In this document: in pieces, positions 11,622-63,401 of the stretch
Numbering within the stretch: the stretch's first letter is position 1
Layout of the letters: the number at the start of each line of letters is the position of its first letter
DNA from: an uncultured Acidobacteriota bacterium
GTDB taxonomy: Bacteria > Acidobacteriota > Thermoanaerobaculia > UBA5066 > DATFVB01
NCBI GenBank assembly: GCA_963813155.1
Contig: CAWEYG010000003.1
Coordinates: forward strand, 769,866 to 833,865
Reading direction: 5' to 3'
Length of the DNA stretch: 64,000 nucleotides
The notes under the pieces: model-generated
Told to the model about the DNA's origin: nothing
Database searches by the model: none
What the model saw: the letters and a program-made list of their open reading frames with translations, nothing else
Position numbers and translations under genes: made by a program

Positions 11622-12164
11622 ATGGCGAGCTCGCGCCCCCTCGACACGATGCCGTCCGGCTCTGCCGACTTCTTCACGACGCGGCTCGACAACCTCGTCG
11701 CGTGGGCGCGCAAGAACTCCCTGTGGCCGCTCCCCTTCGGGACGGCGTGTTGCGCGATCGAATACATGTCGATCGTCTCCTCGCATTACGACCTCTCCCG
11801 GTTCGGCGCGGAGGTCGTGCGGTTTTCTCCCCGGCAGGCCGATCTTCTGATCGTTGCGGGAACGGTCGTCGACAAACTCGCTCCCGTGCTCCGCAAGATC
11901 TACGACCAGATGCCGGAGCCGAAATGGGTGATCTCGATGGGCGTCTGCGCCTCGTCGGGAGGGTTTTACCGGGCGTACCACGTCGTCCAGGGCATCGACG
12001 AGATCGTTCCGGTCGACGTTTACGTCCCCGGCTGCCCTCCGACGCCGGAAGAGCTGATGTACGGGATCATCCGGCTCCAGGAAGCGATCCAGTCGGGAAA
12101 GAAGTCCCGCGACGGCCGCTCGGCGCGCTACGCGGCGAGCCTTCCCGCGATCCAGGCGCCGTGA
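11622..12164 (+). CDS. nuoB: NADH-quinone oxidoreductase subunit B
   Basis: CCAIEYM and GVCASSGG / CPP Fe-S ligands. ATG at 11622 (track TTG at 11616). No nuoA upstream; def is the upstream neighbour. Confidence 0.9.
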
Positions 12165-13890
12165 GCGACACGGCCGTCTCTTCCCTGTCGGCGCCCGCCG
12201 AACGGATCCGGCGGAAAATCGCGGAGAAATTCCCCGATTCGAAAGTCTCCGTCGCAGACCTCGACCTGCCCACCGTCGAGACCGACCCTTCGAGCTGGCC
12301 CGCGGTCGCCCGCTTCCTGCGCGACGACCCGGAGCTGCGGTTCGATCTTCTGCTGGATCTCGCGGGAGTCGACAATCTCCAGCGCCGGGGCCGGCCGAGC
12401 CGGTTCGAAGCCGTCGTCGCACTTTTACTCCACTGTTCGCGACGAGCACGTTCGCGCGAAGGTCATCCTGGACTCCGACAAACCGGGCCTGCCGTCCGTC
12501 GTCGACGTCTGGCCCGCGGCGAACTGGTTCGAGCGCGAGGCCTTCGACCTTTTCGGTTTCGATTTTCCCGGGCATCCGAGGCTGCGTCGCCTGCCTGTGC
12601 CACGAGGCGTTCGTCGGCCACGCGCTCCGCAAAGACTACGCCGCCGGCCAGCGCTGGATGTGCACGGACGACGACCTCTACGTGCCGTCGCTCGTCGAGC
12701 GGGAGAACGAGGAGCAGGACCAGTTCGAGACGGTCGTCGTCAACCTCGGGCCGTCGCATCCCGCGACGCACGGGACGCTCCGGATCGTCGCGCGCCTCGA
12801 CGGGGAGCAGATCCTCGAGGCCGAGTCGGAGATCGGCTACCTGCACCGCTGCTTCGAGAAAATGTCGGAGACGCACACCTGGAACCAGGTCATCCCGTAC
12901 ACGGACCGCCTGAACTACTGCTCGTCGTTCCTCAACAACGTCGCCTACTGCAAGACGGTGGAGCGGATGCTCGGGATCGAGGTGCCGGAGCGCGGCGCGC
13001 TCATCCGCACGATCCTCTCCGAGTTCTCGCGGGTGATGGACCACTGCGTGTGCATCGGCGCGAACCTCGTCGACACGGGAGCGCTCACGAACTTCTGGTA
13101 TCTCTTCCAGTGCCGCGAGGAGATCTACTCGCTGATCGAGGCCTGCTGCGGGGCACGCCTGACCGTCTCCTACGGACGGATCGGCGGCCTCTCGCGCGAC
13201 GTGCCGGAGGACTTCGTCGAGCGGTGCAAGTCGCTGCTGAAGTCGATTCCGCCGTTCCTGAACGACGTGGACGGGCTCATCAAGAAGAATCGGATCGTGT
13301 GGAACCGTTTTCACGGCGTCGGCGTCGTCTCCCGCGAGCAGGCGATCGCCTGGGGATTCACCGGCCCGTGCCTGCGCGCTTCCGGAGTCGGGTACGACGT
13401 GAGGAAGTCCCGTCCGTACGATTTCTACGACCGCTTCGACTGGGACGTGCCGGTGCACCGCGACGGCGACAACTATGCCCGCTACCTCGTCCGCATGGAG
13501 GAGATGCGGCAGTCCCTTTCGATCATCCGCCAGGCGCTCGAGGTGTTTCCGAAGTCCGGGCCCGTCGACGCCGCCGACTGGCACGTCGTGCTCCCGCCGA
13601 AGAACAACGTGTACCACGACATGGAATCGCTCATCTATCACTTCAAATGGGTGATGGAGGGGATCCAGGTGCCGGAAGGCGAACGGTACGAATGGTTCGA
13701 AGGGGGCAACGGGGAGCTCGGCTTCTACATCGTGTCGACGGGAGGCGGATCGCCCTACCGCGTCAAGGTCCGGCCGCCCTGCTTTCCCCTGATGGCCGCC
13801 TTCGAAAAGATCATCGCGGGCAGCCGCATTTCGGACGCCGTCGCGACGCTCGGGACGCTGAACATCATCGCCGGGGAACTGGACAGATGA
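12161..13890 (+). CDS. nuoCD: Fused NADH-quinone oxidoreductase subunit C/D (nuoCD); NuoC portion interrupted by two apparent +1 frameshifts
   Basis: GTG at 12161 overlaps the nuoB stop (GTGA). NuoC N-terminus reads in frame 2 to ~12418; the conserved NuoC core ([18 protein letters not shown]...[18 protein letters not shown]) reads in frame 0; ...[12 protein letters not shown] runs in frame 1 straight into intact NuoD (12658-13890; [16 protein letters not shown]...). Confidence 0.7.
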
Positions 13891-33144: not shown

Positions 33145-34997
33145 CTAAGAGCTGATCGCGTCCAGGCGATCGACGATGCGGCGCGCGCTCGCGTCCCACG
33201 TCCATTTCGCCGCGACTTCGAGGGCCGCGGCCTGCCCTCGAAGGCGTGCGGCGTCGCGATTCTCGTACACCTCGCGAAGGAGGGCCCGCAGGTGGTCCGG
33301 GTCCGGGTCGGCCCAGCGAAATCCTTCGTAGTAGGGGCACTTCGCTTCCGCGGGTATCGTGCCGCGCACACGGAGAGGGTAGGAAATCTGCTCGTGGACG
33401 AACTCGCGGTGCGCGCCCCAGTCCGTCGCGATCGTCGGAAGCCCGCAGGCCATCGCCTCCATGAGGGGCATGTCCCACCCCTCCCCGCGGCCGGCGGAGA
33501 CGTAGCAGTCCGCGGATCGGTAGAAGCTCGCGAGCTGGGCGTAGGGAAACTCGAGGTTCAGCAGGAACGCGGTGCGGCCTCCGGACTTCTTCAGCTCCAG
33601 CTTCCGGATCTCCTCCCGGACGGCGACGCTCGGGTCGCGATTGATGATCTTGCACACGAGCCGGACCGGCTCGCTCGCCTTGAACTCGTCGTTGAACGTC
33701 TTGAGGAGCAGCCCGGGCGCTTTCCGCTCGCCCCATTCGAAGTTCGTCGCGAACACGAACTCCCCGAGCGGGTTCTCGTGGCGGCGAACCCCGGGATGAA
33801 AGTAGTTCGTGTCGATGCCGAGCGGGATCTTGTGGATCGGGCGTTTCAGTCCGGACGCGAGAAATCCCTCGCGGTTGAATTCGGTCGGAACCCAGACCTC
33901 GTCCATGAGGTTGGCCTGGCGGACCCACTCGCGCGGAAACCCGTCGACCTCCAGCATCGTGAAGCCGATCTTCTGCCGGCCCCGATTCGACCGGAACACG
34001 TCGCCCTGGCCGTAGACGACGGAGACCCGCGGGCGAAGTGCCCGTCCGCCCGCTCCCGGATGACGTTCATCAGGTAGTCGCCGGTGTTCTCCGGCTCGTC
34101 GACCGGAAATGGCGTTCCGCGGCCGTAGACGTATTCGTAGGCCGCTCGCACGCCCAGTCCTTCGAGGGCTCGCAGGATTTCGCGGGAGCTGATCGCGTAT
34201 CCCGTGGAGAAGTTCAGGATCGATTGCCAGAGGACATTGTGGCGATACCGGCCATTCAGATGGGAGCGCCAGTTCTTGCGAAAGATCTCCCGGCTCGCCT
34301 GGAACAGGCTGCTGAAATGCTCGTCCGAACCGGAGGTGGACCCGTGCTCGTCGTGCACGAGCGTGACCCCGCCGCACACGACGACTTTGAACCCGGCACG
34401 GCGGGCGCGAAGGCAGTAGTCCGTGTCTTCGAAGTACGACTCGAAGTCCTCCGAGAGGGCTCCGATCGCCGCGATCGCCTCTCTCTTCAAAAGCGCGCAC
34501 GCGAAGACGACGCCCTCGACTTCGCGGCTCGAGGTGTATTGCCCGATGTCGCGTTCCCCCGATCCGATCTGCTGGCCCCACATCGTCTCGGGAACCATGA
34601 ACGTGCCGGCGTGGAGCAGCGACCCGTCGGGCCTCGTCAAACGGCAGCCCACGACGCCGATCACGGGAGAGGAATGGGCGCAGGCACGCATCCGCGACAG
34701 CCAGTCTTCCTGGAAAAACTCCAGATCGTTGTTCAGCAGGACGATGTCCGACCCCGGATCGGCCTCTCGAATTCCGACGTTGTTGCCCCTCACGTAGCCG
34801 AGGTTTCGATCGTTCCGGATGACTCGGACCCAGGCGTATTCTTCGAGCCGGCGGGGAGTCTCGTCCGTCGAACCGTTGTCGACGACGATCACCTCCGCGT
34901 CGGACAGGTCCGTTCGCCGCAGGGAGTCCAGGCACTTCTTGGTCAGGTTCCAGCGGTTCCAGGCCAGAACGATGAGGGTCGCTTTTCGCGCGGTCAT
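33145..34997 (-). CDS. Probable bifunctional GT2-GT4 glycosyltransferase; reading frame changes near 34040
   Basis: GT2 domain (VVDNGSTD, DTDYCLRA) from ATG 34997. Same frame continues into a GT4-like N-terminal Rossmann segment; GT4 C-domain (EX7E region ...GEGWDMPLMEAMACGLP...) is in another frame to stop 33145. Confidence 0.5.
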
Positions 34998-35302
34998 CTA
35001 GGAGCGCTCACGGCCTTTCTCTGCACGGCGAGCGATCGCCACAATTCGGTCATCGTCTCTTCGACGTCCGCGGGGAAAAGCTCGGTCGACTCCCTCCAGC
35101 CGGCAAGGCCGATTCCCGATCGGGGCAGCGGCGGCAACCCGGACGACAGCCGCGAAAGCGTCACGAGATCCTTGTCGCAGAGCTCGGGCGAGAGCGCTCG
35201 AATCAGGTCGGAACGCTCGGCGAGGCTCCTCTCGAGCCGCTCGACCTGAGCCTCGAGCCCCGCGATGCGGAGCTGGGCGGAACGCTCGTCGTCCGCTACC
35301 AT
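34994..35302 (-). CDS. Small coiled-coil protein
   Basis: Heptad-rich AQLRIAGLEAQVERLERSLAERSDL; overlaps neighbours by a few nt on each side. Confidence 0.3.
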   Translation of the reverse strand: MVADDERSAQLRIAGLEAQVERLERSLAERSDLIRALSPELCDKDLVTLSRLSSGLPPLPRSGIGLAGWRESTELFPADVEETMTELWRSLAVQRKAVSAPR

Positions 35303-35583
35303 TTTCGGCCGATGATTCGCCGGAAGAACTGCAGGAGCCGCCAGGACCGGGAACCTTCCACTCGCTGATTGAATTCCATGTACTTGCGGACCTTCTCGCG
35401 CAGCTCCCGCTCGCGGGAAACGGCTTCTCCGTCGAGGGAGTCGAGGCGTTCTCCGAGATCGCGCTCGCGCTCGAGGCTCTCGCCGAGGCGCAGCTCGAGG
35501 TCTCGGACGAGCGCTCTCAACTCCCCTTCGCCCCGGGCTTCCCTCGTCTCGGTGTCCAACACTTGAGAAATGTTCTCCGGCAT
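35296..35583 (-). CDS. Small coiled-coil protein (95 aa)
   Basis: ATG at 35583; charged heptad repeats; starts 4 nt after the conserved 58-nt leader element. Confidence 0.35.
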   Translation of the reverse strand: MPENISQVLDTETREARGEGELRALVRDLELRLGESLERERDLGERLDSLDGEAVSRERELREKVRKYMEFNQRVEGSRSWRLLQFFRRIIGRKW

Positions 35584-35586
35584 AGA

Positions 35587-35644
35587 CCCCTGCGTACAAA
35601 TCCGTTAACTGGCAATCGCCTCTCGCAATATTGTACGCGAGAGG
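35587..35644 (-). promoter_or_regulatory. Conserved 58-nt leader element, copy 1, with perfect 8-bp inverted repeat CCTCTCGC-N10-GCGAGAGG
   Basis: 52/58 identical to 39977-40034; inverted repeat at 35619-35626 / 35637-35644; loop holds TACAAT (-10-like in gene sense); element ends GGGG 3-4 nt before the ATG. Confidence 0.5.
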
Positions 35645-36431
35645 GGCCCAAATCGTATACTGCGCGAAATTGGACGCTCTTCCACCCCCTCCCCTCCGCC
35701 TGTCGGTCGTGATCGCCGCCTACGACGAGGCTGAAAACGCGGAAAGGCTGACGCGGAGGCTCGATGCCGTTCTGCGGTCGCTTGCAGGGTGCCAATCCGA
35801 GCTCCTCTTCGTCGTCGAAGGACGGGACGGCACTCGGGACATCCTGGAGGGGCTGACGGGCGAGATTCCCAACCTCCGGATCCTCTACGCCGAGGACCCG
35901 GGCGGCCTCGGAAAGGCCTTCCGGAGGGGTTTCGCCGCGGTCTCCCCCGACAGCGACTACGTCCTCACGATGGACGCCGACCTCAACCACCAGCCGGAGG
36001 AAATTCCCCGCCTTCTCCAGGCCGCGCGGGATCGCGACGCCGACATCCTCGTCGGCTCGCGGTTTGTCGAGGGCGGGCGGGTCGACGGGACGCCCCCCTG
36101 GAAGCTCCTCCTGAGCGGCACGCTCAACGTGATCATGCGGATCGTCTTTCGTCTGCGCGTCCGGGACAAGACCTCGGGATTTCGAATCTACAGGACCGAG
36201 GCCCTCCGCCGCCTGGAGTTCGAAAACGAAAATTTCGCGTTCCTCCCGGAGATCCTCATTCGCGCGAACGCCCTCCGGATGCGGATAGTCGAGGAACCGA
36301 TCCACTTCATCTTCCGAACGGCGGGGAAATCGAAAATGCACATCGTGACGACGGCATGGAGCTACCTGTCGCTGATGAGGCTCCGATTCCGCTCTTTGAA
36401 AAGCTCGGGCTCGAGGCGCCTCACTCCTTGA
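35631..36431 (+). CDS. GT2 polyprenol-phosphate sugar synthase (DPM1-like)
   Basis: SVVIAAYDE...DAD signature; true start probably TTG near 35668 (MDALPPPPLRLSVV). Confidence 0.75.
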   Translation: MYARGAQIVYCAKLDALPPPPLRLSVVIAAYDEAENAERLTRRLDAVLRSLAGCQSELLFVVEGRDGTRDILEGLTGEIPNLRILYAEDPGGLGKAFRRGFAAVSPDSDYVLTMDADLNHQPEEIPRLLQAARDRDADILVGSRFVEGGRVDGTPPWKLLLSGTLNVIMRIVFRLRVRDKTSGFRIYRTEALRRLEFENENFAFLPEILIRANALRMRIVEEPIHFIFRTAGKSKMHIVTTAWSYLSLMRLRFRSLKSSGSRRLTP

Positions 36432-37260
36432 CGGCGTAGGCGGTCATCAGGTCACCGAAATTGACGGGGACTTCAACGCCGCTCAACCCGGCCCTGCCAA
36501 CCGCCCAGGAAAGCGCGCGGCCGACCCGGTCGCCACACACTCCTCCGACTCGGGTCGCGAAGTAGCCGGCGCTCACGCGCCTCCCTTCCGCGAAGATCCG
36601 AACTGCCCGGAAACCCGTCGATTCCAGCGACCTCGCGAGTGTCCGGCGCGAGAAATAGTGGAGGTGCATCTCCATCAGCCAGGGCCAGCGGCCGCGCATC
36701 AGATTCGCCGTGAGGCTTCCCACATCCATCGTGTGCACGACGAGGACTCCTCCCTTGCCGAGGAGCCGGGCGGCAGCGTGCAGCAGGGAAATCGGATCGG
36801 AGATGTGCTCGATGACGTCCCACATCGTGACGACATCGAAAGAGCCCTCCGCGAACCCAGCGGAATCGAGCGTCCCCTCGACGACGTCGAGTCCCCGGGC
36901 GCGGGCTTCTCCGGCAGCCCACCGCGACGGCTCGATCCCGGAGGCGGTCCACCCGCGCCGGCCCGCGACTTCGACCATCGTTCCCGTGTAGGCCCCGACG
37001 TCGAGCAGCCGGCCCGGAGGGCGCCGCAGCGTTTCGATCCGCGCGAGACGGCGGCCGAAGGTGGCCACGCGCGAATCCTCTTCGCGGAGATACAGCGGAT
37101 CCTCGACTTCCCGGTAGGCCGAGAGCACGGTTTCCTGGCTCGCCCCCGCGCTCGAAAGCAGGCCGCATTCCACACACTCGAAAATCGCGGGGTGGATGCC
37201 ATAGCCGGAATGGGTGCACTCGTACGACGACGGTTGGGTGGGAGCGCGGTCGGCTGGCAT
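36421..37260 (-). CDS. SAM-dependent methyltransferase with N-terminal Cys4 zinc-ribbon
   Basis: ATG at 37260; CxxC...CVECG ribbon then motif I LLDVGAYTG; paralog of 54462-55259. Confidence 0.75.
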   Translation of the reverse strand: MPADRAPTQPSSYECTHSGYGIHPAIFECVECGLLSSAGASQETVLSAYREVEDPLYLREEDSRVATFGRRLARIETLRRPPGRLLDVGAYTGTMVEVAGRRGWTASGIEPSRWAAGEARARGLDVVEGTLDSAGFAEGSFDVVTMWDVIEHISDPISLLHAAARLLGKGGVLVVHTMDVGSLTANLMRGRWPWLMEMHLHYFSRRTLARSLESTGFRAVRIFAEGRRVSAGYFATRVGGVCGDRVGRALSWAVGRAGLSGVEVPVNFGDLMTAYAVKE

Positions 37261-37340
37261 GGTGTCGGGAAAACGGAGATGCCGCTGGCTCCCTCCGCAG
37301 AGAACGCACGACCAGGTCTTCTCCGGCGAGCGCAAACTCG

Positions 37341-38660
37341 CTACTTTCCGCCGCGAAACATTGCCAAACGGTACTTGCGCAGGATCGGCATGTCCTTGCG
37401 AACCTCTTCCGGCTCGGGATAGATCGACCGCCGGATCTGAGCGTCGCTTATCGTGCCCGCCGTCAGGTCCGCGGCGTTTCGCCGACGCACGATCGTATTT
37501 CCCCGCAGAATCGGAAGCCAACGGACGGAAGGGATCACGGACGCCGCCAGCGAAAAGCTTGCCGCGAGCCCAATCGCGAGCAAGCGAAGCGGCCGCCGCC
37601 CGAGGCCAAGATCCAACCTCATCGAGACGAGCACGAGAGTCGCAATGCCCAGGAAGGACGTCGAGGCGACATAGTGGGAACCCAGAGCCTGTTGCGGACC
37701 GGCAATCGACCTCGCCATCGCGACCAGGGCAGCCGCGCCAAGCGAGAGCAGGCCCAGCGAAATCCAGCGCCGAAAGGAATCGCGTCGGGCCTCTTCCCGG
37801 CGAACGGCCCAGAGGACGCAGTAACCAAAGAGCAGGAGGACGCCGAAACCCAGGCCCGCGGCGAGCTGGAATGACGGCTTCGGGGCCACGCCGTACGGCC
37901 GCCCCAGAAGAGCGAAGAAGAATGGCACGACCGTGTTCCACTCGACGTACATGCCGGCGGTTTGTGAGGCACCACGCGCGAACAGCAGCGTGCCGAGCCC
38001 GACGGCGGCCCAGACGGCGAGCTTTCCGAGACGGCGCCCGCCGGCCGTTGCGATCGCGAACAGGCCGACGACCCAGATCGCGTTCGCCGCACCGAAAGAA
38101 AACGCGGCCACGAGCGCCGACAGGAGCGCCAACCAGAACAGATTTCTCGAGGGATCTCGCCGGGTGAGGAGAAAGACCGCGAGAACCGACGCTAGGATCG
38201 AGAAGTTCTGGCCAAACGAGTAACCCGACAGAAAACATTCGAATTCCACGATCGAAAAGACGTATGCCGACAGGGGTGCGGCCAGGATCAACAGCCTCGG
38301 CTCCGTTTCGCGAAGCATGGCGATGAGCAGCGCCAGCGTGCCCGCGCACACGGCGTAACTTGCGAGGACTTCGACCTTCACGTTCCAGTGCGTGAGAACG
38401 CCCAGGACGTAGAAGATCATTCGCGGCACCACGTTGTAGTGACCGTTGTACGGCTTCAGGAGGAGGGGAAGGACCGGCAGGTGCTCATAGTGCGCGGCCC
38501 AGACTTCGACCTCGCTCCACTGGTCCCAGCTCGGGATGTCCAACGTCATCGGAAAAAGAAGCGCGAACTGAACGAGCGGGATCGCCGCGGCGACGGCCAG
38601 AGAGAACAACCCCGCGATGTTCCATCCGCGATCGGGGAGATTCCCGGGTTCCCGCGTCAC
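37341..38660 (-). CDS. Polytopic membrane protein, tandem paralog A (WDQW / KPYNGH family; GT-C-like candidate)
   Basis: 439 aa, ~11 TM helices; shares IPLVQFALLFPMT...WDQW...KPYNGH...HWNVKVEV with the next three genes. Confidence 0.65.
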   Translation of the reverse strand: MTREPGNLPDRGWNIAGLFSLAVAAAIPLVQFALLFPMTLDIPSWDQWSEVEVWAAHYEHLPVLPLLLKPYNGHYNVVPRMIFYVLGVLTHWNVKVEVLASYAVCAGTLALLIAMLRETEPRLLILAAPLSAYVFSIVEFECFLSGYSFGQNFSILASVLAVFLLTRRDPSRNLFWLALLSALVAAFSFGAANAIWVVGLFAIATAGGRRLGKLAVWAAVGLGTLLFARGASQTAGMYVEWNTVVPFFFALLGRPYGVAPKPSFQLAAGLGFGVLLLFGYCVLWAVRREEARRDSFRRWISLGLLSLGAAALVAMARSIAGPQQALGSHYVASTSFLGIATLVLVSMRLDLGLGRRPLRLLAIGLAASFSLAASVIPSVRWLPILRGNTIVRRRNAADLTAGTISDAQIRRSIYPEPEEVRKDMPILRKYRLAMFRGGK

Positions 38661-39970
38661 GGATGCTCCTGCCCCGTCCCATGGCGATAAGCCGCGAGGC
38701 GATGCTCCCGGAGAATCGGCAGTGAGTCGCGAACGACTTGCGGCAGTGGGAACAGAGACTGCTCGATCTGGGCGTCCGTGGCCGTGCCCCTCATCAGGGC
38801 AGCGTCGTTTCGCCGGCCCACGTTCGACCAGCGGCGAAGAACGGGAAGCCAGCGGGCCGAGATCGCCACGACGTTCAGAAAGAACAGCGCCGCGACGGCG
38901 CAGACCGCGAGAGGAGACCCCCGCCCGAGCCTCGATCCTCCCCCGAGGATGACGCCGAGGAGCACGAGGAGCGCGACTCCGAGGAGACTCGTTGCTCCCG
39001 TGTAGTGGGAGGTGAAGGCCCCGCGAAGGTCAGGCGAAGATCGTGCAATCGCGATCAGCGCCGCCGATCCCAGCGCCAGCAGGCCGACCGCCGTCCAGCG
39101 GCGGACCGAGGGAGCATCCACCTTCTTTTCGCGGACAGCGAGAGCCACAAGAAGCGGGAGGAGGAGCACGGCAGCGATTCCAGAGATTTCGGCCGCATGA
39201 ACGTTTCCGCGCGGAGCCGATGTGTAGGGCGCGCCGAGGAGCGCCAGGAAAAAGGGCCCGACGGAAGGCCAGTCGACGGAAATTTGCGGCACTCGAGCGA
39301 CCGCGATCCGAGCGAGCGCGGCGCATCCCGCACCCGCCAGCACCCAGAGCGCGAGACGGCCGCGCCGTACCGGCCTTTCCCCCGCGAGGAGAAGGAGGCC
39401 TACCGGCCAGACGGCAACCGCGGCCCCCCAGGAGAAGGAAGCGACGAGAGCGAGGAAGAGCGCGATCCAGTAGCGATTTCTCGAAGATTCGCGGCGCGTG
39501 AGAAAGAACAGAGCTGCCACCGACGCGAGCAGGGAAATCGTCTGGCAAAGCGGATACCCGGAGAGGAAGTTCTCGAACCCCGCAATCGAGAAAATCGACG
39601 CCGACACCGGCGCGGCCAGGATCAGCAGCCTCGAGTCCGTCTCCCGAAGCATGGCGAGCAGTACCGCCAGCGTGCCACCGCACATAACGTAGCTGGCAAC
39701 CACTTCGACCTTCACGTTCCAGTGCGTGAGAAGGCCCAGGATGTAGAAGATCATTCGTGGCACGACGTTGTAGTGACCGTTGTACGGCTTCAGGAGGAGG
39801 GGAAGGACGGGGCGGTGCTCATAGTGAGCCGCAAACACCTCGACGTCGTTCCACTGGTCCCAGGTCGGCATCTCCGAGGTCATCGGAAACAGGAGCGCAA
39901 ACTGAACCAGGGGGAATGCCGCGGCGACCGTCAGAGAGACGATCGCGATGGCCCGTCCGGACGCCGTCAC
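38657..39970 (-). CDS. Polytopic membrane protein, tandem paralog B
   Basis: GTG at 39968-39970 gives MTASGRAIAIVSLTVAAAFPLVQF, co-linear with paralog A's N-terminus; the track start at 40018 would read through the conserved leader element. Confidence 0.6.
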   Translation of the reverse strand: MTASGRAIAIVSLTVAAAFPLVQFALLFPMTSEMPTWDQWNDVEVFAAHYEHRPVLPLLLKPYNGHYNVVPRMIFYILGLLTHWNVKVEVVASYVMCGGTLAVLLAMLRETDSRLLILAAPVSASIFSIAGFENFLSGYPLCQTISLLASVAALFFLTRRESSRNRYWIALFLALVASFSWGAAVAVWPVGLLLLAGERPVRRGRLALWVLAGAGCAALARIAVARVPQISVDWPSVGPFFLALLGAPYTSAPRGNVHAAEISGIAAVLLLPLLVALAVREKKVDAPSVRRWTAVGLLALGSAALIAIARSSPDLRGAFTSHYTGATSLLGVALLVLLGVILGGGSRLGRGSPLAVCAVAALFFLNVVAISARWLPVLRRWSNVGRRNDAALMRGTATDAQIEQSLFPLPQVVRDSLPILREHRLAAYRHGTGQEHP

Positions 39971-39976
39971 GGCCGA

Positions 39977-40034
39977 CCCCTGCGTACAGATCCGTAAGCT
40001 TGCAATCGCCTCTCGCAAAATTCTACGCGAGAGG
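39977..40034 (-). promoter_or_regulatory. Conserved 58-nt leader element, copy 2
   Basis: CCTCTCGC (40009-40016) / GCGAGAGG (40027-40034), loop TAGAAT in gene sense; ends GGGG 6 nt before the GTG of paralog B. Confidence 0.5.
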
Positions 40035-40070
40035 ACTCCAGATCGACGGTGTAGGCGATCATCGGCGGCG

Positions 40071-41435
40071 CTACTTTCCCGGACCCGCGCCCGGCGAGGG
40101 CTCCGCGACCGCTTGCTCCCGGAACATCGCCAGCCGGTATTTCCGGAGAACCAGAAGGCCTTTGCGAACCTGTTCGGGGCGGGGATAGATGGACTGCCGG
40201 ATCTGGGCGTCGGTCGCCGTGCCCGCCGTCAGGTCCGCGGCGTTTCGCCTCCGCGTGACCGTGTATCCCCGCAGAACCGGAAGCCAGCGAGCGGAGGCAA
40301 CCACGGAGACAGCCAGCGACAGGCTTGCCGCGAGTCCAACGGCAAGCAAGCGAACCGAAGGGCGTCGCAGGCCCCGATCCAACAGCATCGAAAAGAGCAC
40401 CAGAGTCGCTGCGCCGAGCAAGGACGTCGAGGCGGCATAGTGGGCGGCCAGCGCCTGTTTCGGGGGTGCAGTCGACCTCGCCATCGCGATCAAACCGGCA
40501 GAGCCGAGCGCGAGGAGGCCGAGCGAGAGCCAGCGCCCGAGCGAGTCGCGGCGGAGGTCTCGGCCGCGAAGGGCCCAGGCCGCGCAGCAGCTGAAAATCA
40601 GGACGGCGCCGAGACCGGCGGCCGCCGCGAGCTGCAACGACGGGTTGGGAATGGGGACGTAGGGCCGACCCAGCACGGCGAAGAAGAACGGGACGACGGT
40701 CTTCCGGTTGACGTACAGGTGCGCGGTTCGAGAAGCGACCCGCGCCAGCAGCAGTGAGCCGAGTCCGACGGCGCTCCAGGCGGCGAGCCGGACGGCGCGG
40801 CGCCCCCCGGCAATCGCGATCGCGAACAGACCGGCGACCCAAATCGCGTTTCCCCCGCCGAAAGAAAACGACGCCACGAGCGCCGACAGGAGCGCCAGCC
40901 AGAACAGATTTCTCGAGGGATCTCGCCGGGTGAGGAGAAAGACCGCGAGAACCGACGCCAGGATCGAGAGGTTCTGGGTAAGCGAATACCCCGACAGAAA
41001 ATTTTCGAACTGCACGATGGAAAATACGTAGGCCGACAACGGCGCGGCCAGGACCAACAGCCGCGAGTCCGTTTCGCGGAGCATCGCGATCAGAGCCGCC
41101 ACGGTCCCCGCGCACACGGCATAGCTCGCGAGGACCTCGACCTTTACGTTCCAGTGCGTGAGGAGGCCCAGGAAAAAGAAGATCATCCGGGGCAGGACGT
41201 TGAAATGGCCGTTGTACGGCTTCAGAAGGAGCGGAAGGACGGGGCGGTGCTCATAATGCGCGGCAAACACCCCGATTTCGCTCCACTGGTCCCAGCTGGG
41301 GATCCCCAGGGTCATGGGAAAGAGGAGAGCGAACTGGATCAGGGGGATCGCCGCGGCGACGAGAAGCGAGACGCCCGAGGCACGCGCCCAGGCGGGGCCG
41401 GAATTCTGGTCCTGGGACTCGGGGTTCGGCGGCAT
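40071..41435 (-). CDS. Polytopic membrane protein, tandem paralog C
   Basis: ATG at 41435 (MPPNPESQDQ...); ~100-nt stretch with 3 mismatches to paralog A (40875-40976 vs 38109-38220). Confidence 0.65.
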   Translation of the reverse strand: MPPNPESQDQNSGPAWARASGVSLLVAAAIPLIQFALLFPMTLGIPSWDQWSEIGVFAAHYEHRPVLPLLLKPYNGHFNVLPRMIFFFLGLLTHWNVKVEVLASYAVCAGTVAALIAMLRETDSRLLVLAAPLSAYVFSIVQFENFLSGYSLTQNLSILASVLAVFLLTRRDPSRNLFWLALLSALVASFSFGGGNAIWVAGLFAIAIAGGRRAVRLAAWSAVGLGSLLLARVASRTAHLYVNRKTVVPFFFAVLGRPYVPIPNPSLQLAAAAGLGAVLIFSCCAAWALRGRDLRRDSLGRWLSLGLLALGSAGLIAMARSTAPPKQALAAHYAASTSLLGAATLVLFSMLLDRGLRRPSVRLLAVGLAASLSLAVSVVASARWLPVLRGYTVTRRRNAADLTAGTATDAQIRQSIYPRPEQVRKGLLVLRKYRLAMFREQAVAEPSPGAGPGK

Positions 41436-41493: not shown

Positions 41494-42069
41494 ATGAAAA
41501 AAGCTGCGACACCACCCGCCCTTCTCCTGTTGCTTTCCGTGGTCGTAACGATCTTTTCCCTATCCTGCAGCCGCGAGCCGGCGTCGACGCCCGGGGAGGC
41601 GTCCTCATCCGCCTCGACCTCCCCTCCGGCTCCCACGGGGCCGCCTGCTGTCCCCGACGGGCTGACGTCCCTGTCGGAAACGGCCTTCCGAGTCGAGTGG
41701 GGCAACCCAAAACTTTCGCCCGCGCTCCGCGCCGGTCAGTCTTCGAGCGTGACCGTTCTCGTCAAAAACACGGGCGATGAGCAGTGGCCGAGCAAGGGAT
41801 CGCTTGACCCGAGCTGGGCCGGCGCGGGCGCGGTTCGTCTGAGCTACCGTTGGCTGAAACCCTCGTCTGACCCCCTCACCTCATTCACGGACCGAGTCGA
41901 TCTTCCCAAGGCTTTGGGACCGGGAGAATCGGCCGAATTGGTCGTTCCCGTGAAGACCCCAGGGGAGCCCGGCGACTACAAACTCCAGTTCGATCTGGTT
42001 CAGGAGTCCGTGGCGTGGTTCAGCGACAAGGGAGCAGCCAAGCTCGCCGTGCCCGTCAAAATTCAGTGA
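41494..42069 (+). CDS. Secreted/lipoprotein with FDLVQExVAWF domain (family member 1)
   Basis: Signal peptide with Cys, Pro/Ser linker, then FRVEWG...VRLSYRW...GDYKLQFDLVQESVAWFSDKGAAKL. Confidence 0.6.
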   Translation: MKKAATPPALLLLLSVVVTIFSLSCSREPASTPGEASSSASTSPPAPTGPPAVPDGLTSLSETAFRVEWGNPKLSPALRAGQSSSVTVLVKNTGDEQWPSKGSLDPSWAGAGAVRLSYRWLKPSSDPLTSFTDRVDLPKALGPGESAELVVPVKTPGEPGDYKLQFDLVQESVAWFSDKGAAKLAVPVKIQ

Positions 42070-43826
42070 GGACCTGAAGGCCGCGCCGCCAGATCCGACG
42101 CCGCACCGACAACGCGGATTCCGGCCTCGTCGGGCACGAGCCGGCCGATTTCGATGTCGCGCCGCCTCCCGTACAGGCACCGCAGTCGGACGCGGAGATC
42201 GTGAACGCCTGACGCGGGCAGGACAGACAACGGCACCCGGATCCGCCAACCCGCGTGCCGAAACGCCTGGTCGCGGTAGCTCGCGGCAACGTCGGGTCGC
42301 GGAAGCCCGAGCTCCGCGGAGGCGACGGGGTGGCCGTCCAAGACGAGATCGAGCCGCTCCACGGGCACACCGGAACGGGGAGAGTCCGCCGCCCATCCGC
42401 GGATGTCGACCACCGTGCCAGTGCGGAGAATCACCGTTCGCCCGCGGAAGGCGAGACCGTTGATGACATCCACGCTTCCGATTGGCGGAATACTCGACGG
42501 CCTGTTTCGGTAGGCCGCGAGCCCGTATTCCCGGAGTACGCCCAGGGCATCGCGCACTGCCTGCGGCCTCGGGTAGAGCGAGCTGCGGATCTGCGCATCC
42601 GTGGCGGTACCGTTGAGGAGGTCAGCGACGTTCCGGTCGTTGATCTGGGAAAAACGACGAACGACCGGGAGCCAGCCCGCGGAGAGTTTCACGACCTGCA
42701 CCGTCGCGAGAGATCCGATCACGACGATTGCCACAAGCCGATGCCCGGAGCTCGTCGCCGTCCGCTGCGGCTCGCAGTCGATCGACGCGACGATCAGCAT
42801 GAACGCGGCGATTCCCAGCGGCGTCGTCGACGTGCAGTAGTGAGAAGCGAGCGCCTGATCGAGGCCCGCGCTGGCGCGCGCAAGGGCAATCAAGGCTGCC
42901 GACCCGATCGCAAGCAGCCCGACGCAGCTCCACCTCCGAAGAGAGTTTCGGTCCATGCCCCCTCGACGCCAGGCGAATGCCAGTGCCAGAACAAACGCCG
43001 CGCACACGGCGAAACCGATTTCTCCTAACGCCCGAAGCGAAGAGTGCGGCGAGAGAGCGAACGGCCGGCCGAGAAGGACGAGGAAAAAAGGAACCACTCT
43101 CGCCCAATTGACGCGGAGCGTGGCGACGCTGGCGGCGTGCTTGGCGAGAATCAGGCCGCCGACGCCCGCAAGGCTCCACACCGACAGGCGGAGACGCCGG
43201 CGCGTGGGATCCGTGGCGATCGCGACCAGCCCCACGATCCAGAGCGAGTTTGCGGCCGAAAAGGACAGCGACGCAAGGACCGCCGCGATCACCGCGGGCA
43301 CGAACCGATTCGCCCGGCCGTCTCGCCGAGTGAGAAAGAAAATCGACAGGACAGAGGCCAAAAGAGATAGGTTCTGCATCAGAGGATAGCCCGAGAAGAA
43401 GTTCTCGAATTGCGAGAGGGAGAACACGTAGGCCGACAGGGCCGCGGCGACGACGAGCAGGCGGGGACTCGTTTCTTTCGCCATCCAGATCAGCAACGCG
43501 AGGACCCCGACGCAGACGACGTAGCTGGCGACGACCTCCGCGCGGACGTTCCAGCGCGTCAGCAGTCCCAGACAGTAGAAAATGAGCTTCGGAAACACGT
43601 TGAAGTGCCCGTTGTAAGGACGGAGCAGGAACGGCAGAACCGGCTTGTGGGTGTAGTGCCGCAGCCAGAGCTCGACCTGGCTCCACTGGTCCCAGATGGG
43701 CATGTCGCTCGTGAGTGGAAAGATCAAAGAAAACTGGAGAATGGGAATTGCCGCCGCGATGCAGAACGACGCGACGTTCGCGATCGACCATGCCCGCGAG
43801 TCCCGGTCGATGGTGTCGATTTTCAA
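42063..43826 (-). CDS. Polytopic membrane protein, tandem paralog D, with ~150-aa C-terminal Ig-like extension
   Basis: Same N-terminal family motifs as A-C; extra C-terminal soluble domain resembling the C-terminus of 63456-63986. Confidence 0.65.
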   Translation of the reverse strand: MKIDTIDRDSRAWSIANVASFCIAAAIPILQFSLIFPLTSDMPIWDQWSQVELWLRHYTHKPVLPFLLRPYNGHFNVFPKLIFYCLGLLTRWNVRAEVVASYVVCVGVLALLIWMAKETSPRLLVVAAALSAYVFSLSQFENFFSGYPLMQNLSLLASVLSIFFLTRRDGRANRFVPAVIAAVLASLSFSAANSLWIVGLVAIATDPTRRRLRLSVWSLAGVGGLILAKHAASVATLRVNWARVVPFFLVLLGRPFALSPHSSLRALGEIGFAVCAAFVLALAFAWRRGGMDRNSLRRWSCVGLLAIGSAALIALARASAGLDQALASHYCTSTTPLGIAAFMLIVASIDCEPQRTATSSGHRLVAIVVIGSLATVQVVKLSAGWLPVVRRFSQINDRNVADLLNGTATDAQIRSSLYPRPQAVRDALGVLREYGLAAYRNRPSSIPPIGSVDVINGLAFRGRTVILRTGTVVDIRGWAADSPRSGVPVERLDLVLDGHPVASAELGLPRPDVAASYRDQAFRHAGWRIRVPLSVLPASGVHDLRVRLRCLYGRRRDIEIGRLVPDEAGIRVVGAASDLAARPSGPH

Positions 43827-61684: not shown

Positions 61685-63401
61685 TCATTTCACGCGAACC
61701 CGGATGACGAGCGGGTTCGCCCCCTGATCCGAAAACCACGACACAAACTCCTGGACGAGATCGAAGTGAAGCTCGAAGTCACCGGCGAGATCCGGCGGCG
61801 TGATGTCGATCGGAAGAGTCGTCCATTGCCCCGGCAGGAGGGGTTCGCTCAGGTCCGCGCGCGGCGAATCGTCGGGAAGGGGTTCGGAGGAGTTGACCTT
61901 GAACCATCGACATCCCAACCGCACGGCGCGGACCGCATCGGGGATCCCCGATATCGAGGGCCGGGGACCGAGCCAGGAGACCGGGCTCGCGTTTTGGAAG
62001 CGAACCGTCGCCTCGAAGGGCTTGCGCTCGATCACCGGCGGTACATGGACCTCTCCCCACCGGACCCTGTAGCCGTCGGGCGGGAGAGCATTCGGCCGAG
62101 CCGTGAATCCCGCGACGTTCGAGCGCGCAAGGAGATCCTCCCGCATCTCCAGATGATGCCAGTCCCATGCATGGGCCTCCAGCGGGAGTCCCATCCTCGC
62201 TTCCCAGTTCGACGAACCGTAGGCGAGACCTCCTTCGATCTGGATGAGGATCGACAGAAGCGCCAATACGCCGGTCACGATCAGGTGTGGCCGTCTCATC
62301 CGCCTCAATGCCAGAATCGAGGTGAGCGCGAGCACGGGCAGTATCTCGATCAGGTAGCGCGGCCCGAAACTCCAGCCGCCGGCCCAGCGGGCAAACGAAC
62401 AGTGGACGAGCGCGTAGGCGATCGCCGCCGCAGAAAAGGTCGCCAGAAGAGGCCGGGCCTTCGCCTGGCGGAAGGCAATCCCCATTCCCGCCAGGCCCAC
62501 GACCGCCACCGGCGTGTAGAAGAGGAGTCCGCGATTCGGGCTGAAAAACAGGCCGAGAATGCCGAGCGGAGCGTTGCGCAGAGCGATGTGCGTGGCGCCG
62601 TGAACGGTTCCCCCCATGGGATTGTCGAAGTAGTAGAGGTTGTAGAAGAGAAACGGCGCCGCGGCGGCGATCGCGCCCGCTCCGTAGGCCAGCGGCGCCC
62701 TCCATCCCCGTCTGCGCCGTATCCCTTTCAGAAGCAAATAGGCGAACCCGGCGGCCGCGAAAATCGCCGCCGCCGGCCGGATGCCGTACAGAAAATCCGA
62801 GAAAGACGCCGGCCAAAGCTCCTGAGCGAACCGTCCCGCCCGGCCGAGAGAGGCAGAACAATCCGAGGAGCAGGAACAGCACGTCCGGGCCGTGCTGCCA
62901 GAGCTCCTGGCTCGCCACCGCCCACATCGAGGTGCCCAGACCGAATACGAGAGCGACGCCGAGTGCGCGGTACGGGCCCGCCCAGGGAACGAGCATCCGG
63001 AAGAGCACCAGTACCGCCGCGGCGCAGATGATCCCGGCGCTCCAGATCTCGGCCGTGGCGGCCACATCGAAGAGATTCCGGGGGGAAGTTCGTTTCTGCA
63101 GCGAAAGAACGGCGTAGATGGGGAGGTCGACGGGAAGCGCGGCGATCGCCGCGCCGATGGGATAGTGGGACATCAGATGCCCGCGCCGGTTCTCGAGATA
63201 GCCGACCTCCCGCGTGTCGCGCGAGAATTCTGCCGAGAACGAGTCCAACGTCACTCGATGGTCACGAAGAATCGCGAAAGGAAGGACCCGCGTACCGAGC
63301 GTGTCCCAGCCTTCCGCAACACTCGACACGTCGGCCGTCGAGACGTAGGCAGCGAGGCAAACGAAGAAGATTGCCACGCCCGAAAGAAAGGGTCGAGTCA
63401 C
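61685..63401 (-). CDS. Membrane GT-C-like protein fused to a C-terminal FDLVQExVAWF domain; apparent 1-nt insertion near 62800
   Basis: N-terminal ~200 codons (MTRPFLSGVAIFFVCLAAYV...) in the frame of ORF 61779-63401; remainder in the frame of ORF 61685-63067, ending ...GDFELHFDLVQEFVSWFSDQGANPLVIRVRVK*. Confidence 0.5.

Follow-up and report, generated by a model that had tools for sequence, protein, structure and literature searches.

The window analyzed here is a 64-kb stretch of DNA (64% GC) from an uncultured, Thermoanaerobaculia-like member of the Acidobacteriota, and it includes a large, poorly understood glycan-biosynthesis cluster in which two direct copies of one repeat are located on the minus strand. 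Copy A occupies most of an 86-bp divergent intergenic region, which extends from ATG 35583 on the minus strand to TTG 35670 on the plus strand, and the operon downstream of it runs on into a gene with a PhyH domain. Copy B lies in a 100-nt gap between the stop codon of membrane-protein paralog 3 (40071) and GTG 39970 of paralog 2; the database protein P0001 begins at the same codon. The longest ORF of the divergent GT2 gene next to copy A begins at 35631, within the hairpin loop of the repeat. No tRNA or tmRNA genes were found in the window, and exact-sequence look-ups of the 95-aa protein, the GT2 and P0001 returned no record. The features of the locus are as follows:

33846-35583, minus strand: operon downstream of copy A, with the same gene order in the related loci L020-L025
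34997-33846, minus strand: GT2 glycosyltransferase gene of the copy A operon
35302-34994, minus strand: 102-aa coiled-coil ORF of the copy A operon
35583-35296, minus strand: 95-aa coiled-coil ORF, first in the copy A operon
35585-35655, minus strand: copy A, putative promoter core with 5' leader and SD-like GGGG (pairwise match and nhmmer profile; orthologous in L011 and L020-L025)
35587-35590, minus strand: SD-like GGGG of copy A, 3 nt before ATG 35583-35581
35619-35644, minus strand: inverted repeat of copy A, CCTCTCGC / GCGAGAGG, 8 bp with a 10-nt AT-rich spacer (pattern search)
35619-35626, minus strand: 3' arm of this repeat, around the predicted +1
35637-35644, minus strand: 5' arm, at predicted promoter positions -14 to -21
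35630-35635, minus strand: putative -10 box TACAAT of copy A in the hairpin loop, predicted start at ~35622-35624 and 5' UTR of ~40 nt
35656-35661, plus strand: -10-like TATACT of a putative divergent promoter, separated by 20 bp from TACAAT and by 8 nt from TTG 35670 downstream
35670-36431, plus strand: divergent GT2 glycosyltransferase gene (inferred start TTG 35670)
36421-39970, minus strand: genes downstream of copy B
about 37200-36421, minus strand: methyltransferase gene of the copy B gene set
38660-37341, minus strand: membrane-protein paralog 1
39970-38657, minus strand: membrane-protein paralog 2
39975-40045, minus strand: copy B, the duplicated 71-nt cassette (pairwise match and nhmmer profile)
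39977-39980, minus strand: SD-like GGGG of copy B, 6 nt before GTG 39970-39968
40009-40034, minus strand: inverted repeat of copy B, CCTCTCGC / GCGAGAGG, perfect over 8 bp with a 10-nt AT-rich loop (pattern search)
40020-40025, minus strand: putative -10 box TAGAAT of copy B, different from copy A at hexamer position 3 only, predicted start at ~40012-40014

The initial annotation had reported a 58-nt element at 35587-35644 and 39977-40034, and coordinates, strand and identity (52 of the 58 core positions match) could all be confirmed; the full repeat unit is longer and comprises 71 nt with 86% identity between the copies. The perfect 8-bp inverted repeat that had been described for both copies was recovered as well, as CCTCTCGC-N10-GCGAGAGG is present exactly twice in the window, compared with 0.23 sites expected with up to 2 mismatches, and the 40-nt 3' part of the element also occurs twice (0.00 expected). 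An nhmmer profile built from both copies detected no third copy in the 64 kb, not even a degenerate one. At both edges the similarity breaks off sharply and the adjoining genes are unrelated. The element had been regarded as an island of conservation amid diverging coding DNA, of which the repeat itself is real, while the flanking coding sequences are not homologous at all. Therefore, the two copies represent a duplicated module and not conservation between paralogous loci.

Orthologs of copy A were compared at eight loci upstream of the gene for the 95-aa coiled-coil protein (copy A itself, termed winA, together with L011 and L020-L025), whose proteins are 62-87% identical to that of the window. 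TACAAT is invariant in all eight loci, and among all nine sequences, including copy B (winB), the hexamer varies at position 3 alone (C or G), where a -10 box is under the least constraint. Directly upstream of the hexamer, CTCTC-GC is invariant in all eight sequences of a second alignment (winA, winB, L011, L020, L021 and L023-L025). Downstream of it sequence and length vary, with hexamer-to-ATG distances of 17, 17, 28 and 46 nt (range 17-46), and ACGCAGGGG is kept in all five long-leader sequences (winA, winB, L011, L020 and L021). The hairpin behaves differently from the hexamer: both 8-bp arms are perfect in winA, winB and L011, which limits the palindrome to a sub-clade, and, next to an unchanged 5' arm, the 3' arm carries uncompensated mutations in L020 (GCGAGCGG) and L021 (GCAAGCGG) and is missing in L022, L023 and L025. 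Over the hairpin 78% of cells are paired, a level reached by 62 of 500 shuffles, and six of the eight pairs depart solely via unpaired cells, without any covariation.

The suggestion that the loop carries a -10-like TACAAT or TAGAAT is borne out by this invariance and by the use of the same hexamer class elsewhere in the window. Each of the two hexamers matches TATAAT at five of six positions with A2 and T6 present. TAnAAT occurs at only 14 sites on both strands of the window, and 10 of these are sense-oriented and lie between 80 nt upstream and 30 nt inside of predicted gene starts, for which 4.4% would be expected (binomial 2e-11). As the hexamer is invariant in the orthologs and the rare TAnAAT is concentrated upstream of gene starts, we infer that the loop is a -10 box. 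No -35 hexamer close to TTGACA was found in either copy, the best candidates ATACGA and CGTCGA matching at no more than three of six positions, and a consensus scanner, which demands both hexamers, reported no sigma-70 promoter in 35200-40400; most other TAnAAT sites of the window likewise lack a -35 box. Sigma-70-type promoters that rely mainly on the -10 box (TAnnnT) are found in high-GC bacteria rich in leaderless genes, where a -10 box 6-10 nt before the start codon is the signature of a leaderless transcript (PMC3160421). Copies A and B resemble these promoters in the invariant TA[C/G]AAT upstream of a gene start and in the lack of a conserved -35 box, and the hexamer class precedes many other genes of the window at leaderless spacing, including five TAnAAT sites that stand 6-10 nt ahead of a start codon. 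They differ from them in a leader of ~40 nt with an SD-like GGGG, which is unusually long for this window, and in the spacer CCCCTCTCGCG, which is conserved beyond expectation. Taken as a whole, the window shows that promoters with a -10 box only are in use in this lineage and that its genes frequently start without a leader. Two other promoter classes were judged by eye and rejected: a sigma-54 promoter is at odds with the GG/GC spacing, which is incorrect and not kept in copy B, and an ECF-type promoter with the absence of a GAAC-type -35 box.

Thus, the elements most likely represent a bacterial promoter of the ordinary kind with its short untranslated leader, present twice, once ahead of each of two operons in the glycan cluster, and we assign a probability of about 0.65 to a promoter-plus-leader cassette that is neither a structured RNA nor a mobile repeat. 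The loop hexamer would act as the -10 box of a sigma-70-type promoter without a recognisable -35 box, as is typical in the window, and RNA polymerase would start ~7 nt downstream of it, inside the 3' arm. This would yield a leader of ~40 nt with the SD-like GGGG at its end, followed by the start codon; the proposal that the 3' GGGG serves as a Shine-Dalgarno sequence fits its position in both copies. As the predicted start lies within the 3' arm, the hairpin would be missing from the promoter's own transcript, and the eye-catching structure is probably incidental. In this case the 8-bp inverted repeat owes its existence to a chance complementarity between the 3' arm and the conserved promoter spacer, and the conserved function would not depend on it. 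The main value of such an assignment lies in the annotation, as two likely transcription start regions are marked.

Copy A would be the native promoter of the operon for the two small coiled-coil proteins and the GT2 glycosyltransferase. Copy B, L020 and L021 have the same sequence throughout the 3' half of the leader (AGCTTACGGATCTGTACGCAGGGGTC), and copy A carries three derived changes, which argues that copy B is an older duplicate of the same promoter and not an independent element. We assume a lineage-specific duplication that reached from about -31 as far as the SD; the duplicated segment would have been inserted between two tandem membrane-protein paralogs and would have created an internal promoter there. 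The locus could therefore serve as a small and clean example of how duplication of a promoter cassette equips a tandem paralog array with an internal promoter. Since the two operons of the glycan cluster seem to share one promoter and leader, they are presumably co-expressed.

It is possible that a dimeric regulator binds CCTCTCGC-N10-GCGAGAGG across the -10 box and the start and either represses transcription or acts in a MerR-like manner, with the two operons as a small regulon. Such control would be added to the promoter and would not take its place, and we regard it as unlikely. A site over the -10 box and +1 is the classic position of a repressor, and the inverted repeat encloses both -10 box and predicted start, as in operators of the LacI, TetR or LexA type. 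The perfect 8-bp repeat is kept in winA, winB and L011 and the 5' half-site with CCCC is invariant across most orthologs, beyond the needs of a spacer, so that the block CCCCTCTCGCG hints at a bound factor. However, the 3' half-site changes freely in L020 and L021 or is absent from L022, L023 and L025 although the promoter core stays intact. In contrast to the known operators, the half-sites are 18 bp apart from centre to centre and thus lie on different helix faces, an uncommon arrangement for a simple HTH dimer. Furthermore, a scan of ~50 ORFs of the window revealed no regulator gene, and the window shows no enrichment of the half-site CTCTCGCG (11 sites versus 14.9 expected).

A role of the palindrome at the RNA level would require transcripts that read through from upstream, in which a switch could act on the downstream gene by tuning its translation or stability, at least at copy B, which would be transcribed from the upstream paralog 3. 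In one state the 5' strand CCCCUCUCGCGUACAA would pair with GCGAGAGG to a local hairpin, and the SD would stay accessible; in the other state CCCCUCUCGCGUACAA would form a long-range helix with UUGUACGC-AGGGG and thereby occlude the SD. Copy A indeed has two perfect, mutually exclusive 8-bp repeats, its MFE structure uses the long-range helix (-31.5 kcal/mol, z = -2.7) and that of copy B the local hairpin, and the outer helix is 85% paired across six long-leader sequences. Yet neither helix shows a compensatory change, the outer helix has zero double changes, L011 breaks GUACGC, and L022, L024 and L025 lack the region. Moreover, upstream of copy A there is neither a gene in the same direction nor a visible promoter from which the 5' strand could be transcribed. 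In the folding of both leaders that the initial annotation had called for, the z-score of copy B is just -0.8, and the consensus fold of the predicted leader is weak (-5.3 kcal/mol). Its Rfam check was negative, as Rfam 15 yielded no match at gathering thresholds over the whole window nor at E <= 5 over 35400-40300, and an attenuator or thermosensor hairpin finds no support in view of the uncompensated or missing 3' arm of the orthologs and of the predicted start inside this arm. Neither does the element resemble an intrinsic terminator: there is no U-run, as CGAUUGC comes after the stem in the minus sense and GGCCCAAA in the plus sense, and the hairpin did not appear in the terminator scan. 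Taken together, we consider the switch quite improbable. A combined version, in which the spacer CCCCTCTCGCG and its alternative partners GCGAGAGG and UUGUACGC-AGGGG form a lineage-specific regulatory device, be it an operator or an SD-occluding RNA switch on read-through transcripts, that was copied to a second operon, appears doubtful to us. If true, the copied device would extend this control to a family of uncharacterised membrane paralogs of glycosyltransferase-like type in Acidobacteriota. As it stands, the finding is an ordinary one and a role of the palindromes as operator or RNA switch gets no support here; a new mechanism would be implied only if they prove functional.

The location in the early leader of glycan-biosynthesis operons also recalls the JUMPStart/ops element of RfaH targets, a short conserved 5' leader sequence of such operons that, as here, stands at more than one operon head. 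The ops consensus is GGCGGTAGnnTG with the core GGCGGTAG(nnTG), and the candidate GGCGATTGCCAG matches 8 of 10 specified ops positions by eye, so that it might recruit a specialised NusG paralog; GGCGRTTG is kept in four of the eight aligned sequences (winA, winB, L011 and L021). The ops consensus as such is unmatched, however, since the core is absent from the leader, which has GGCGATTGCCAG instead, and the key bases G5 and A7 find no counterpart. In the other orthologs the motif is not conserved either, as it varies in L020 (GGCCGTTG), L024 (GGCGGTTT) and L023 (CCTGGTTG), and L022 and L025 lack it. GGCGRTTG is not enriched (9 sites versus 7.4 expected) and does not occur at other operon heads, and a Pfam scan detected no NusG or KOW-domain gene among ~50 ORFs of the window. 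Unlike in ops leaders, the best-conserved part of the element lies upstream of the predicted start, and an ops-like function is therefore very improbable in our view.

A small mobile or REP-like intergenic repeat, as also considered in the initial annotation, could have landed upstream of two genes by chance, and the sharp similarity edges, the internal inverted repeat and a 4-nt CCGT on both sides of copy B, which may itself be due to chance, would be in line with such an origin. However, this CCGT is the only flanking repeat, the inverted repeats are internal without terminal inverted repeats at the ends of the element, and no transposase or similar gene was found. The copy number is low too, with two copies in the 64 kb of the window and one in 11.4 kb of the related locus L020, and the other homologs are all located upstream of the 95-aa gene. 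The pattern search for further copies proposed earlier returned, in the collections named here, a single homolog besides the two copies of the window. Among 185,579 GTDB representative genomes, which do not include the source genome, the pattern CTCGC-N10-GCGAGAGGCGATTGC gave no true copy, as its three matches (L002-L004) are all chance hits within unrelated sequence. In JGI metagenomes the pattern CTCGCGTAnAATnTTGCGAG returned 13 loci, only one of which (L011) is homologous beyond the pattern itself and represents an ortholog, and viral contigs of IMG/VR contained 0 matches. The element is also absent from L001, L005 and L006, more distant relatives that were found via homologs of the paralog family. 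As no dispersed copies were found in the window or the scanned collections and every homolog found elsewhere lies at one orthologous locus, we reject the mobile or REP-like repeat, which is left with hardly any probability. An attC-like recombination site was ruled out as well, as the hairpin is short, located at one end and without core sites.

Returning to the promoter cassette, copy A seems to have a counterpart on the opposite strand. TATACT would drive transcription of the divergent GT2 gene, whose mRNA would probably be leaderless and begin at TTG 35670, and the 8-nt spacing between TATACT and this codon recurs at the leaderless sites 2042 and 4406. The complementary AGTATAC stands 20 nt upstream only in loci with a divergent upstream gene, and L022, L024 and copy B do not have it, a distribution as expected for a second, divergent -10 box. 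This arrangement of TACAAT and TATACT resembles back-to-back divergent promoters, in which each -10 box of copy A lies roughly where the -35 box of the other would be, whereas copy B has one -10 box only. The L020 ortholog of the divergent GT2 is 85.7% identical over window positions 34198-36386, and the divergent partner differs by genome, with a GT2 gene in the window and in L020 and a gene for a GT-C-like membrane protein in L011 and L021.

The hairpin elements described in the initial annotation could be confirmed: two similar units, copy A and copy B, directly precede minus-strand gene starts (58-nt core 52/58 identical, full 71-nt unit 86% identical). Pattern searches of the window gave exactly two matches both for the palindrome (0.23 expected) and for the 40-nt 3' part (0.00 expected), and an nhmmer profile of the copies revealed no third copy over the 64 kb, degenerate ones included. 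The similarity stops sharply in front of the start codons, at a distance of 3 nt from ATG 35583 for copy A and of 6 nt from GTG 39970 for copy B; GTG 39970 is also the start of the database protein P0001. The following features are relevant:

35585-35655 (copy A) and 39975-40045 (copy B), minus strand: repeat unit, in minus sense CGATyTGG..CCTCTCGC-GTAsAATwTT-GCGAGAGG-CGATTGCmAGyTwACGGATyTGTACGCAGGGGTC
35583-35296, minus strand: 95-aa coiled-coil ORF, first gene after copy A
35302-34994, minus strand: 102-aa coiled-coil ORF, overlapping the 95-aa ORF
34997-33846, minus strand: GT2 gene behind both coiled-coil ORFs
35670 (TTG, likely start) to 36431, plus strand: divergent GT2 gene on the other side of copy A
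37341-38660, 38657-39970, 40071-41435 and 42063-43826, minus strand: tandem array of four paralogous polytopic membrane proteins (paralogs 1 to 4)
41494-42069, plus strand: lipoprotein-like gene between paralogs 4 and 3 (191-aa ORF, lipoprotein-type signal peptide …LSLSC)

The window has a GC content of 64%, and from about 20 to 64 kb it consists of a large glycan-biosynthesis cluster with GT2 transferases, epimerases, dehydratases, sulfatase-type enzymes, methyltransferases and YfhO- and DUF2142-type membrane proteins. Copy A occupies most of an 86-bp divergent intergenic region. Copy B sits in the 100-nt gap that separates paralog 3 (stop at 40071) from paralog 2 (GTG 39970), and paralog 2 is followed by paralog 1 and a methyltransferase gene; as paralog 4 is set apart from paralog 3 by the plus-strand gene 41494-42069, copy B is internal to the unit paralog 3, paralog 2, paralog 1, methyltransferase. 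The 191-aa ORF diverges from paralog 3 across a 58-bp gap with a CAGAAT hexamer 18 nt before the paralog 3 ATG. The four paralogs are mutually 50-57% identical and belong to a family for which a collection of 5.8 billion proteins yielded only 24 members below E 1e-5; Pfam assigned no family to them, the only match being a sub-threshold one to DUF6057. Wherever found, this family is located in glycan clusters, with genes for GT2, methyltransferase and YfhO proteins as neighbours. For the 95-aa protein, which has no Pfam match, the same collection contains only nine homologs, and the coiled-coil gene pair precedes a GT2-like gene in unchanged order in the six further loci L020-L025.

Judged from the sequence, the hairpin loop, with TACAAT in copy A and TAGAAT in copy B, is most probably a -10 box, and the initial annotation was right on this point. 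TAnAAT occurs at only 14 sites on both strands of the window, 10 of which lie in sense orientation between 80 nt upstream of and 30 nt inside a predicted start (4.4% expected; binomial 2e-11). Five of the sites (2042, 4406, 17800, 21656 and 49328) are located 6-10 nt before a start codon, a spacing reported as characteristic of leaderless genes with TANNNT -10 boxes in high-GC bacteria (PMC3160421). No -35 box is recognisable at copies A and B or at most of the other TAnAAT sites, and several start codons behind such close hexamers, including a plus-strand TATACT at 35656-35661, are TTG or GTG. This suggests that leaderless mRNAs are frequent and that -10-only promoters are used in this Acidobacteriota lineage. 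TATACT lies 20 bp from the TACAAT of copy A and is followed after 8 nt by TTG 35670, with which the divergent GT2 gene likely starts. AGTATAC, the complement of TATACT, is confined to loci with a divergent upstream gene; copy B, L022 and L024, whose upstream genes are co-directional, lack it, and TATACT therefore fits a second, divergent -10 box.

The comparison with orthologs points in the same direction. TACAAT is unchanged in 8/8 orthologs (identity of their 95-aa proteins to that of the window: 62-87%), and with copy B included the third position alone varies. The block (CCCC)TCTCGCG just upstream is kept in most orthologs, and everything downstream of the hexamer varies. The 3' arm reads GCGAGAGG in both copies and in the metagenome locus L011, GCGAGCGG in L020 and GCAAGCGG in L021, and is not recognisable in L022, L023 and L025; no matching change in the 5' arm was found in the aligned orthologs, which leaves hairpin-centred interpretations unsupported. 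Of the hairpin cells, 78% are paired, a value also reached by 62 of 500 shuffles, and six of the eight hairpin pairs depart through unpaired cells only. The flanks of copy A and L011 differ at roughly 10-12% of positions, yet the run CCCCTCTCGCGTACAATATTGCGAGAGGCGATTGCCAG is identical; with so small a number of sequences, the 3' arm by itself shows no significant constraint. Between hexamer and ATG lie 46 nt in copy A, L011, L020, L021 and L023; this distance is shorter in L024 (28 nt) and shortest in L022 and L025 (17 nt).

Transcription would start about 7 nt downstream of the hexamer within the 3' arm, roughly at 35622-35624 (A) and 40012-40014 (B), resulting in a leader of about 40 nt that ends in an SD-like GGGG, present before both start codons and rightly proposed in the initial annotation as Shine-Dalgarno candidate. 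With such a start the 5' arm would be missing from the mRNA made by this promoter, which could not form the hairpin. Copy A would represent the native promoter and leader; in copy B the stretch between about -31 and the SD would be duplicated and act as an internal promoter in front of paralog 2, paralog 1 and the methyltransferase gene. If both copies act as promoters, two operons of the cluster are driven alike. The observation is real and the feature ordinary: most probably a promoter-plus-leader cassette of known type, present twice in one glycan cluster.

It is possible that the palindrome serves as an operator on top of this promoter, as the inverted repeat brackets the -10 box and +1 and the spacer block is conserved to an unusual degree, but the 3' half-site is not conserved, half-sites are not enriched and the window contains no regulator gene. 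That the palindromes add lineage-specific regulation seems unlikely to us. As to an RNA switch, GCGTACAA/TTGTACGC plus CCCCT/AGGGG could form a second helix in copy A that excludes the first one and covers GGGG; however, this helix lacks covariation, is broken in L011 and absent in three orthologs, and requires a transcript beginning upstream of the -10 box. The resemblance of GGCGATTGCCAG to GGCGGTAGnnTG recalls an ops/JUMPStart-like element, but the motif is variable and not enriched, and no NusG paralog is present in the window, all of which argues against this reading. The Rfam scan proposed in the initial annotation matched no RNA family.

At its 3' end (35587-35599) the leader nearly repeats the promoter core (35631-35646) in inverted orientation (TTGTACGC-AGGGG versus CCCCT(CTC)GCGTACAA), possibly as a remnant of an inverted duplication or a template switch by which the long leader arose; L022 and L025 have a leader of only 17 nt.

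Searching CTCGC-N10-GCGAGAGGCGATTGC in 185,579 representative genomes (source genome not among them) gave three matches, all by chance, and a viral scan gave none. The hairpin-plus-loop pattern hit 13 loci in JGI metagenomes, with homology beyond the pattern in L011 alone, which is 87.5% identical to window 34239-35674 and hence carries an ortholog of copy A. The loci L020-L025, reached via homologs of the 95-aa protein, contain at most one copy each, always directly upstream of the 95-aa gene. L020 is syntenic with the window (GT2, element, coiled-coil ORFs, GT2; 85.7% over 34198-36386) and has membrane-family paralogs, yet the 11.4 kb examined contain the element only once; the more distant relatives L001, L005 and L006 contain none. 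As copies elsewhere occur only at this orthologous position, the element is locus-specific and copy B a duplication peculiar to the source lineage. This duplication is not very recent, since copy B is identical to L020 and L021 in the leader 3' half and copy A has three derived substitutions. With two copies in 64 kb and the others found at one orthologous locus, copy number and position lead us to reject the suggested small mobile or REP-like repeat.

CTCGCGTAnAATnTTGCGAG on twelve unrelated JGI contigs (L007-L010 and L012-L019, including the two small families L007/L008/L017 and L014/L015) likewise places a -10-like hexamer within a short palindrome, which may reflect chance or a promoter/operator design that recurs. 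Synteny breaks precisely at the divergent gene start (window 35670-35674; L011 1451-1461; L021 about 1040): in the window and L020 the partner of the cassette is a GT2 gene, in L011 and L021 a GT-C-like membrane protein that is similar to window gene 61685-63067. The promoter region has the look of a fixed junction at which genes were swapped. Outside the cluster, the NuoD ORF at about 12164-13890 (plus strand) has 575-aa NuoC/D fusion proteins as homologs, the named ones from Acidobacteriota/Thermoanaerobaculia MAGs, and the true start of the gene is probably located well ahead of the 410-aa ORF used here.
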